From a virus (lineage: Duplodnaviria; Heunggongvirae; Uroviricota; Caudoviricetes), in the IMG/VR virus record IMGVR_UViG_2548876858_000010, positions 1-8,233 of that record: a stretch of DNA of 8,233 nt; one strand, given 5' to 3'. Positions 259-6,552 of the stretch are shown piece after piece. The notes beneath the pieces are model-generated. The model saw nothing but the letters and a program-made list of their open reading frames with translations. It was not told where the DNA came from and made no database searches. A program made the position numbers and the translations under genes. Positions within the stretch are counted from its first letter, which is position 1, and the number at the start of each line of letters is the position of its first letter.

Positions 259-458
259 AAATAAAGGGATAACGATGATAGTTTGAGAAAAACAGAAATA
301 ACACTTTTGTTGCAGCGCATGGTGCCGGGTGCCTCCCGGTGAATTCAGCCGGTGTCACTGAACCCGCGTCGGCTTGCCTATAACATAATAAATGCTACCT
401 ACACCAGTCGCCCCTCCGCACAGGGGGATTCACCATGCAGTAGTGTTTTTAATAAACA

Positions 459-489
459 GCAAATAAAAAAATCAAGCATTATTTATGCT
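459..489 (-). terminator. Weak AT-rich hairpin plus U-tract at the end of the TerB/small-membrane operon
   Basis: Minus strand: AGCAU-AAAUA-AUGCU followed by UGAUUUUUUUAUUU. The stem is only 5 bp and AT-rich and overlaps the last codons of the 55-aa ORF. Confidence 0.3.
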
Positions 490-639
490 GTTTCTTTTTA
501 TCACCGACCACAGCAATACCACAATGCCGCAGACCAGCACCCCATCCGCCAGCACCGACATGATTCTGCTGGTGAAATCCACCATCACCACCAGAAACAG
601 CAGGAGTGCAGCCACAGTCAGGCGCAGTTTTACCGTCAC
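472..639 (-). CDS. Small hydrophobic protein (55 aa, two predicted transmembrane segments), translationally coupled to the TerB-like gene
   Basis: GTG start at 639..637 overlaps the TerB-like stop as GTGA; GGAG lies 8 nt upstream. Manual translation: MTVKLRLTVAALLLFLVVMVDFTSRIMSVLADGVLVCGIVVLLWSVIKRNSINNA. Below the ORF-track cutoff; start codon uncertain (in-frame ATGs at codons 19 and 27). Confidence 0.35.
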   Translation of the reverse strand: MTVKLRLTVAALLLFLVVMVDFTSRIMSVLADGVLVCGIVVLLWSVIKRNSINNA

Positions 640-1068
640 AGGTGATTCTCCAGACGAAGACCCAGAACACCGGCAATCTCTTCCAGCACCTTGCGCTCTT
701 CCGGCTCAATTTCGCCTTCTGCCTCCGCAATGGCCACCGCCACATCCAGCACATCTTCCGCTTCACGCGTATCGTGTTTCACATCCTCGATCTCACGTAA
801 CGCCGCACGACGACCAATTTTAAAGTTCGTATCCAGCTGACCGATAATGGTTGCGCTCATCGCATTAATTTCTGACGTAAACGCGGACAGCGCTGGCTGA
901 TTACGCAGTACCTGTTCGATCTTCGCTTTCTCGGAAGCCTCACATTCACCATCTGCACAGGCCACCAGGTATGCGGCGTTAATCACCGCCTGTGCCAGAT
1001 CGCGTTTTTCAAACTTTTTAATTTCCGTTGCCGCTCTGCGGGCTTTTTTTACCAAAAATACCAAACAT
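636..1068 (-). CDS. TerB-domain (tellurite-resistance TerB-like) protein with an apparent frame break at an A7 run near the 5' end
   Basis: Track ORF 636..1097 translates to a TerB-like sequence (…KKARRAATEIKKFEKRDLAQAVINAAYLVACADGECEASEKAKIEQVL… acidic C-terminus). The only ATG with a good SD (AAGGAA-N7-ATG, ATG at 1068..1066) gives MFGIFGKK then hits a stop after 16 codons. Removing one A from the A7 run (plus T7 at 1044-1050) joins it to the long frame. Confidence 0.65.
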
Positions 1069-1237
1069 CGTGACGTTCCTTTGGGTGGGTGAGCCAACGC
1101 CCGGGAGCGATCTGCCCACAGAGAAAGTCACACTGACCACTCCATAAGCTCCCCCCGAAAGGCTCTGTGGTTGGTATGCGCCGGGCGTGGTGCGGATACA
1201 AAAAAGGTCCGCAAAAGCGAGCGAGGGAAAATAAGTG

Positions 1238-1314
1238 TGGTGCGTTGTACTGGGTTCGAACCAGTGACCGATTGCTTAGAAGGCAATTGCTCTGTCCGGC
1301 TGAGCTAACAACGC
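1238..1314 (-). tRNA. argO: tRNA-Arg, anticodon TCT (77 nt)
   Basis: Manual cloverleaf: GCGTTGT/ACAACGC acceptor, GCTC/GAGC D-stem, anticodon loop CTTCTAA, ACTGG-TTCGAAC-CCAGT T-arm, 3' ACCA encoded. Symbol is by analogy with the Stx-phage ileZ-argN-argO triplet and is not verified. Confidence 0.85.
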
Positions 1315-1327
1315 AGAATACCGATAA

Positions 1328-1404
1328 TGGACCGCCATCGGAGACTCGAACCCCGCGAAACCAGCTTCGAAGGCTGGCGTTCTATCCCGATGAGCTAATG
1401 GCGG
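1328..1404 (-). tRNA. argN: tRNA-Arg, anticodon TCG (77 nt); one D-stem mismatch and discriminator U
   Basis: Manual cloverleaf: CCGCCAT/ATGGCGG acceptor, anticodon stem CCAGC/GCTGG with loop CTTCGAA, T-loop TTCGAGT, 3' TCCA. D-stem GCTC/GAAC has one mismatch. Symbol by analogy only. Confidence 0.75.
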
Positions 1405-1405
1405 T

Positions 1406-1481
1406 TGGTGGCCCTTGCTGGATTTGAACCAGCGACCTGGCGATTATGAGTCGCTCGCTCTCACCACTGAGCTAAAGGGCC
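1406..1481 (-). tRNA. ileZ: tRNA with CAT anticodon, ileX-like (probable lysidine tRNA-Ile2; elongator Met not excluded)
   Basis: GGCCCTT…AAGGGCC acceptor, anticodon loop CTCATAA, T-loop TTCAAAT, CCA encoded. Close to the E. coli ileX sequence from memory. Separated by 1 nt from the next tRNA. Confidence 0.85.
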
Positions 1482-6220: not shown

Positions 6221-6376
6221 TTACTCCTCAGGTTCGTAAGCTGTGAAGACAGCGACCTCCGTCTGGCCGGTTCGGATTCGTACCTCGCAGAGGTCTTTCC
6301 TCGTTACCAGTGCCGTCACTATGACGGTTAAACAGATGACGATCAGGGCGATTAACATCGCCTTTTGCTGCTTCAT
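6221..6376 (-). CDS. hok: Hok-family type I toxin (51 aa)
   Basis: Manual translation MKQQKAMLIALIVICLTVIVTALVTRKDLCEVRIRTGQTEVAVFTAYEPEE, matching the HokD/RelF sequence as I recall it. Missing from the ORF track because it is under 60 aa. Confidence 0.92.
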   Translation of the reverse strand: MKQQKAMLIALIVICLTVIVTALVTRKDLCEVRIRTGQTEVAVFTAYEPEE

Positions 6377-6432
6377 AGCCTGCTTCTCCTTGACCTTTCG
6401 GTCCGTAAGAGGCTAATCTCTATGTGTCGCAT
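6373..6432 (-). CDS. mok: mok-like leader reading frame (19 codons) ending in TGA overlapping the hok ATG
   Basis: ATG at 6432 with GAGG 8 nt upstream; MRHIEISLLRTERSRRSRL. Start region aligns with the R1 mok start (cuAUG…GAUAGCCUCUUAC) from memory. Shorter than R1 mok. Confidence 0.45.
   Translation of the reverse strand: MRHIEISLLRTERSRRSRL
6390..6419 (+). promoter_or_regulatory. Sok promoter candidate (TTGACC-N18-TAATCT), antisense to the hok/mok translation-initiation region
   Basis: Hexamers read on the plus strand in the position equivalent to the R1 Sok promoter. Confidence 0.45.
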
Positions 6433-6495
6433 AGATATGGCCTCAGATTAATGTTAAGCGTCTTGCAGGACGCGTAATGTTAACTGGGGCTTTTC
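6426..6495 (+). ncRNA. sok: Sok-like antisense RNA (approximate extent; 3' end not resolved)
   Basis: Inferred from the promoter at 6390-6419 and complementarity to the hok mRNA leader. Contains hairpin GCGTC-ttgcag-GACGC; I could not identify a clean terminator. Confidence 0.35.
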
Positions 6496-6552
6496 TCTAT
6501 CTGCCTTTTGGTGTTCATGCCTGAGACAGATAGCCTCAAGCACCCGCAGTCA

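Follow-up and report, generated by a model that had tools for sequence, protein, structure and literature searches.

A natural A7 frameshift allele of the prophage TerB-family gene tciA in Escherichia coli, most likely a young pseudogene

In the window, by which we mean the whole stretch of 8,233 nucleotides of prophage DNA analysed here, an ATG with a well-placed Shine-Dalgarno (SD) sequence leads into a run of seven A residues (A7), and its frame closes after 16 codons, with a long TerB-like frame lying open in another register. This raises the question whether the extra base is an error of homopolymer sequencing, a mutation which has inactivated the gene, or a slippage-prone on/off switch, as variously proposed in an earlier note on this DNA, or whether the long frame is translated from a start of its own.

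Sequence and translation of the minus strand confirmed the frame break near the start of the TerB-like gene as it had been described (Table 1). The ATG at 1068, preceded by AAGGAA at a distance of 7 nt, opens the reading MFGIFGKK, enters the A7 run and ends at the TAA at 1020-1018. An open TerB frame extends from 1064 to 636, with the reading (L)VFLVKKARRAATEIKKF.. Deletion of one A from the run restores a continuous protein, as had been stated, the length being 143 aa and not the 147 aa given in the earlier note; this equals the length of the A6 allele of phage JLK-2012. The additional base is likewise apparent when the window and the E. coli strains EC12, FORC_042 and EDL933 are aligned with JLK-2012. 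The statement that the TerB frame has no good start of its own was incomplete, as a TTG at 1064, 4 nt after the ATG and in the TerB frame, shares the same SD at 11-nt spacing and is the start annotated by RefSeq in A7 alleles.

Table 1. Features of the tciA region and its neighbours. Positions are those of the window, except in the last row, where they belong to the loci named.
Feature	Position	Strand	Evidence
STnc100 sRNA, immediately downstream of tciB	284-464	-	Rfam, 117 bits at a gathering score of 47
tciB-like DUF3927 small membrane protein	472..639	-	Pfam PF13064, E = 7.5e-16
TerB-frame ORF, 142 codons from TTG 1064	636..1064	-	Translation; Pfam TerB match
Truncated 16-codon ORF MFGIFGKKSPQSGNGN*, from the ancestral start in the A7 allele	1018..1068	-	Translation
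A7 homopolymer, derived +1 insertion in GGT AAA AAA GCC (A6)	1044..1050	-	Plus-strand T7
Ancestral ATG start of tciA (TerB family)	1066..1068	-	Plus-strand CAT; homologue N-termini
Shine-Dalgarno AAGGAA, 7-nt spacer to ATG	1076..1081	-	Plus-strand TTCCTT, read directly
3' arm of predicted leader helix: GGCUCACCC..AAAGG, SD included	1078..1099	-	RNAalifold, duplexes, covariation
5' arm of predicted leader helix: anti-SD CCUUU plus GGGGGGAGC	1142..1163	-	RNAalifold, duplexes, covariation, arm variants by allele
Three-tRNA cluster	1238-1481	-	ARAGORN: Arg(TCT), Arg(TCG), Met(CAT)
hok/sok-type toxin-antitoxin module	6221-6545	-	Rfam sok match and Hok-like ORF
RefSeq/PGAP CDS examples of the A7 allele, TTG start	L001 1637-2065; L003 1637-2065; L274 2522-2950		

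The window represents a segment of the late region of a lambdoid prophage on the minus strand, with the gene order DUF968-type gene, RusA, Q, DNA methyltransferase, three tRNAs, tciA, tciB and STnc100 sRNA. The tciA-tciB pair is an accessory cassette whose neighbours are the Q-tRNA region on one side and, on the other, the downstream end of the window. Phage JLK-2012 has the two genes in the same order, and its pair is annotated as tciA/tciB; the tRNA set at the same place differs in this phage (Asn, Thr, Gly). The CAT tRNA is annotated as tRNA-Ile by RefSeq in matching loci. The hok/sok-type module combines a sok RNA match (6374-6545, 106.7 bits) with a Hok-like ORF of 51 aa (MKQQKAMLIALIVICLTVIV..) at 6221-6376. 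In a megablast search with the whole window, single locations in complete E. coli genomes matched at most 84% of it (best match 97.0% identity over 83%). The window is a mosaic which is not represented as such in that collection.

The long frame encodes a member of the TerB family (Pfam PF05099, residues 26-138, 50.1 bits at a cut-off of 24.4, E = 4e-13). In tblastn searches it showed 96.5% identity to tciA of JLK-2012, 51% over the full length to terB of P7 and 42% over residues 1-107 to tciA of P1. The tciB gene starts with a GTG overlapping the tciA stop codon (GTGA) and has its own GGAG upstream. With homologues in JLK-2012, P7, D6 and P1, and with a DUF3927 gene overlapping its stop, the gene belongs to the phage tciA-tciB cassette, described as a variable part of P1-like elements that is frequently lost (PMC9603915). 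The window shares with this cassette the combination of a TerB domain gene and an overlapping DUF3927 gene, but differs from phage tciA in being frameshifted after codon 8 and in changes of invariant residues. TerB of the terZABCDE tellurite-resistance operon belongs to the same domain family, comprises about 140-150 aa as well and carries an acidic motif of the A-D-G-E type in both halves. In the window these motifs read ACADGE and, in altered form, EAEGE. Unlike TerB of the operon, however, the window gene is a solitary phage gene, the rest of the ter operon being absent, and the aspartate of its second motif is replaced (D117E).

Homopolymer miscalls are common on some platforms, and the extra A might be an error of sequencing or assembly in an A6 gene. 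This explanation was excluded by the distribution of the allele. Among the IMG/VR loci retrieved with a tract-neutral 23-mer, 49 carried A7 and 46 carried A6, the four others being substitutions or remnants, and in an independent metagenome sample 12 A7 and 8 A6 tracts were counted. When 5,426 complete E. coli genomes were searched, the best match was the exact A7 61-mer in 593 records (up to about 590), including EDL933, and the exact A6 60-mer in 140 records (about 110-140), with a background of partial matches of ~30 records in both counts as gauged by queries with A8 and A5. A7 is thus found in hundreds of independently finished genomes and is the commonest allele of its haplogroup in the complete E. 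coli genomes. The closest relative among the latter, EC12, is 99.7% identical to the window over 601 nt and likewise has A7, as have FORC_042 and EDL933, compared with A6 in phage JLK-2012. The window has the haplotype with C37 and with AGAGCGGCAACGG behind the tract, and this haplotype nearly always carries A7 (42 of 44 C37 copies in IMG/VR). A single difference between A6 and A7 in the sibling assemblies of strain 86-24, described below, could itself be a sequencing error. For the window such an error is hardly conceivable; A7 is a real, common and stably inherited allele of E. coli.

Which of the two tract lengths came first, and which start codon is the original one, can be judged from relatives outside E. 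coli. Among 5.8 billion proteins searched, 145 relatives were found. Those of full length, which come from Klebsiella, Salmonella, Serratia, Pantoea, Enterobacter and Erwinia jumbo phages (51-97% identity) start with MFG[IFLM]F[GK]KK or a close variant, and altogether the N-terminus MFG.F.KK at the SD-ATG is present in about 80 full-length homologues. In tblastn searches against 50,697 phage genomes, alignments began at residue 1 of the query in JLK-2012, P7, D6, P1 and the Erwinia jumbo phages. At the DNA level, loci in Pseudescherichia, Pantoea, Franconibacter, Enterobacter pulveris and Buttiauxella show AAAGGA, a spacer of 7-8 nt and ATG TTY GGT TTC GGT AAA AAA GCN, with A6 in the ATG frame and differences which are synonymous in that frame. 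More distant metagenomic loci have the same arrangement, some of them with in-frame runs of A7 or A8. Homologues starting downstream of the tract would have made the upstream ATG irrelevant, as the earlier note had recognized; instead, they use the SD-ATG. Because the relatives from other genera carry GGT AAA AAA GCN in frame, A6 is ancestral and A7 a derived +1 insertion, and the SD-ATG at 1068 is the ancestral start. Compared with JLK-2012 and five other genera, the window therefore shows what is expected of a frameshift pseudogene, namely a derived indel by which most of the ORF is cut off from its ancestral start.

In a second E. coli haplogroup (proteins P0015, P0103, P0032, P0041; loci L101-L103) the gene starts with MFGIFKKKTRR (AAAAAGAAAACC) without a long run. 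Rare variants of this haplogroup are frameshifted or re-started at the N-terminus, e.g. MNLQKKTRRASA.. and MESSKRKPAERLRKLKKFEKRDL.., so that the 5' end of the gene has been broken more than once.

If the insertion had inactivated the gene, its carriers should have a relaxed constraint on the remaining frame, and this is what we observed, though the number of independent events is small. A nonsense codon, E46* (GAG to TAG, codon 46), occurs in 30 of 48 full-length A7 copies, and one A7 locus (L019) has a further 1-nt deletion. We took the 50 positions at which conservation reaches 95% or more among 67 homologues with less than 90% identity. Changes at such residues (A27V, E46*, I70M, D117E; 1-2 per copy) were found in 45 of 48 A7 copies compared with 3 of 35 A6 copies, and in 14 of 16 unique A7 proteins compared with 3 of 12 unique A6 proteins. 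The excess is highly significant in the Mann-Whitney test (p = 1e-14 on copies, 1e-4 on unique proteins), but the copies are not phylogenetically independent and the excess corresponds to about 4-5 mutational events. Of 80 homologues, 78 have D at position 117, 77 have I at position 70 and 79 have Y or F at position 37, where the allele of the window itself exhibits D117E, I70M and Y37C. This allele has thus not retained all invariant residues of the TerB family, which include the two A-D-G motifs; its fold and its assignment to the family are not in doubt, but its functional integrity is. A27V and Y37C may predate the insertion, since one A6 allele (L081, 86-24/6565) already carries both. In a strict polarised count of derived substitutions, 6 nonsynonymous and 3 synonymous changes were specific for A7 and 7 and 14, respectively, for A6. 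As this comparison is not significant (Fisher p = 0.12), we relied on the conserved positions; young A6 variants are likewise rich in replacements. The ORF of tciB is intact in both groups alike.

A few loci have lost most of the gene. In E. coli 2017C-4109 (L112) the leader, the ATG and the A7 run are kept and the next annotated CDS follows about 280 nt downstream of the ATG, and in two loci with an A5 run (L038/L077) the similarity is lost within some tens of bases, unrelated sequence following. Such loci are remnants of recombination or deletion in which only the first part of tciA survives.

A functional A7 allele is nevertheless conceivable if translation begins at TTG 1064. This would yield a 142-aa protein (MVFLVKKARR..) in which the first 5-6 residues are changed, and the ATG ORF would be reduced to a short upstream ORF overlapping it. 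In favour of this, 142 codons are open in frame from the TTG, the Pfam TerB domain begins only at residue 26 so that the altered N-terminus falls outside it, and the allele is very widespread. Furthermore, RefSeq/PGAP annotates exactly this CDS: the coordinates in EC12, FORC_042, EDL933 and 86-24/6564 all map to TTG 1064 and give 142 aa without a pseudogene flag, compared with 143 aa from the ATG for the A6 allele of 86-24/6565. However, the TTG is present in every allele as a by-product of ATG-TTT-GG, and its presence is therefore no evidence of selection. TTG is a weak start codon in E. coli and would have to compete with a better-spaced ATG 4 nt upstream. Among the protein relatives the N-terminus MVFLVKK was restricted to A7-type sequences from E. 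coli and absent from every distant homologue, whereas MFG.F.KK is kept down to about 50% identity. Together with the nonsense codon and the changes of invariant residues which A7 carriers accumulate, this makes initiation at the TTG an unlikely basis for a working gene, and the MVFLVKK CDS is probably a systematic misannotation by start rescue across hundreds of E. coli genomes.

Alternatively it might be that A7 is a recoding site, at which a +1 ribosomal or transcriptional slip joins the frames, or a heritable phase-variable switch between A6 and A7, the on/off switch of the earlier note. Homopolymers of Lys codons are intrinsically slippery, and A6 and A7 are similarly frequent overall in the prophage collections. 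The programmed -1 site of dnaX (A-AAA-AAG), the +1 site of prfB and the slippage at runs of A9 or longer in IS elements and endosymbionts resemble tciA in that a Lys-Lys A run marks the place at which two frames would have to meet. In tciA, on the other hand, -1 frameshifting was rejected because the -1 frame meets a TAA at once, and joining of the frames therefore needs a shift of +1. The codon following the run, AGC, is neither rare nor a stop, a slow A-site codon is missing, and no stimulator was identified on reading the sequence. Efficient transcriptional slippage and phase variation typically involve runs of about 9 bases or more (A/T runs in the case of slippage), and the run in tciA has 7. 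Nor is an out-of-frame slippery site conserved in diverged homologues: the out-of-frame A7 is restricted to one E. coli haplogroup, and the runs of A6 to A8 in homologues are all in frame. The downstream frame, moreover, decays in A7 carriers. In this comparison, which rests partly on established knowledge, a programmed slippage event at A7 is unlikely.

The population data argue against a switch as well. The check which had been suggested, that of tract length among homologous prophages, revealed two lengths tied to the flanking haplotype. In IMG/VR, A7 goes with AGAGCGGCAACGG and most A6 tracts go with CGAGCGGCAGTGG downstream, and an exact A5 or A8 tract was not found among the 5,426 complete E. 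coli genomes; the several tract lengths among close strains that mark a phase-variable contingency locus are thus not seen. When the EDL933-type haplotype was probed with a 148-nt sequence in its A6 form, A6 was present in 1 of about 332 records at at least 99% identity, the other matches listed differing by a single gap. This lone exception is the laboratory mutant 86-24/6565 (L273), in which Q, RusA, DUF3927 and esterase genes neighbour the gene as in the A7 copy of EDL933. The wild-type sibling 86-24/6564 (L274) contained no exact A6 copy, the prophage copies reached being different ones in the two strains. The pair speaks for a switch, and the A6 copy of 86-24/6565 reflects either one real -1 slippage event or an assembly indel; the same kind of A6 allele occurs at the IMG/VR locus L081. 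With one deviating record in about 332, a switch is unsupported and the tract behaves as an ordinary mutation and not as a contingency locus. We therefore regard recoding and switching, taken together, as very improbable.

Of the possibilities raised in the earlier note, an inactivating mutation is the one supported, as E46* and the changes at conserved residues are concentrated in A7 copies. Ancestral tciA starts at the SD-ATG 1068 and reads MFGIFGKK-ARR... through GGT AAA AAA GCC; in a single E. coli haplogroup, insertion of one further A into A6 then gave rise to A7. From the strong SD-ATG, ribosomes would since then read 16 codons and stop at the TAA, and because they do so the TerB frame would no longer be translated from its own start. 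Residual product might arise in two ways, both presumably weak: by initiation at TTG 1064, with its poor codon, its 11-nt spacing and the competition of the ATG, or by an occasional +1 slip within the run of A residues. The A7 allele probably yields hardly any TerB protein, if any at all. As A7 carriers show secondary damage, a loss or strong reduction of function is the most likely consequence, and with good though not full confidence we consider tciA of the window a natural frameshift allele that has become a young pseudogene. Against this it can be held that neither the window nor the EDL933-type allele has lost the open TerB frame of 142 codons, and that RefSeq treats this frame as intact.

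The frame break is an ordinary homopolymer frameshift of a known kind. Frameshift pseudogenes in cryptic prophages likewise show a derived single-base indel followed by secondary lesions in sister copies, and we see no substantive difference between these and tciA; unusual is only that the annotation hides the break by means of an in-frame TTG. This has practical consequences, since hundreds of RefSeq E. coli genomes, including that of O157:H7 EDL933, list the A7 allele as an intact 'tellurite resistance TerB family protein'. Studies which count TerB/tciA as present in EHEC prophages may therefore count a broken gene.

In front of the start codon we detected a second feature, which is more likely than the frame break to repay further work: a leader RNA that would mask the predicted ribosome-binding site of tciA. 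The structured leader lies at 1078-1200 on the minus strand. The stretch of about 130 nt from an upstream terminator-like hairpin to the ATG is more conserved across genera than the synonymous sites of the gene. RNAalifold applied to 26 diverse leaders, which came from several genera plus jumbo-phage-like contigs, predicted a long helix of CCUUU..GGGGUGAGCC with GGCUCACCC..AAAGG, by which an anti-SD would pair with the SD of the 1068 start. The duplex is formed in every sequence, at -23 to -35 kcal/mol, that of the window being the weakest. In the helix 96% of the cells of the alignment are paired and 6 of 14 pairs exhibit compensatory changes; 0 of 500 shuffles came up to this, and slid controls were paired to 33-58%. 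Crossing covarying helices were noticed by eye and left uncounted, namely a hairpin with a loop complementary to a GRGCR further downstream, and CCACAGAG/CUCUGUGG; they suggest that the RNA forms a pseudoknot or folds in alternative ways. Folded as a single sequence, the leader of the window was no more stable than shuffled sequences (z = -0.22), so that the support for the leader is solely comparative. In Rfam the leader had no match at the gathering threshold. Two weak matches at the E-value threshold, to eukaryotic lncRNA families, were taken as chance.

The leader could be a new cis-regulatory RNA of phage TerB genes, i.e. a riboswitch, a thermosensor or a protein-binding leader, and if the predicted pairing is correct it would independently mark the SD-ATG at 1068 as the regulated start. 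In a comparison by allele (loci L005-L100 and L113-L192) the 5' arm GGGGGUGAG was intact in 39 of 45 A6 copies compared with 8 of 45 A7 copies, which adds to the signs of decay in the A7 allele. In the window the usual U of GGGGUGAGC is missing from this arm. The variants of A7 copies (~1148-1156) were mostly GGGGGGAG, in which the U is lost as in the window, GGGGGGGAG, or a poly-G of 8-12.

As leader arm and frame are both altered in A7 carriers, one might suppose that the allele is not dead but re-tuned, with TerB made at a low level by +1 slippage or from the TTG, and coupled to translation of the 16-codon upstream ORF. In that case an attenuated and differently regulated phage stress or defence gene would be maintained in EHEC prophages. 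We rate this as quite improbable and retain the young pseudogene as the preferred reading. The poly-G in the leader arm represents a second variable homopolymer next to the gene; phage Evi, which belongs to the other haplogroup, has G11 there.
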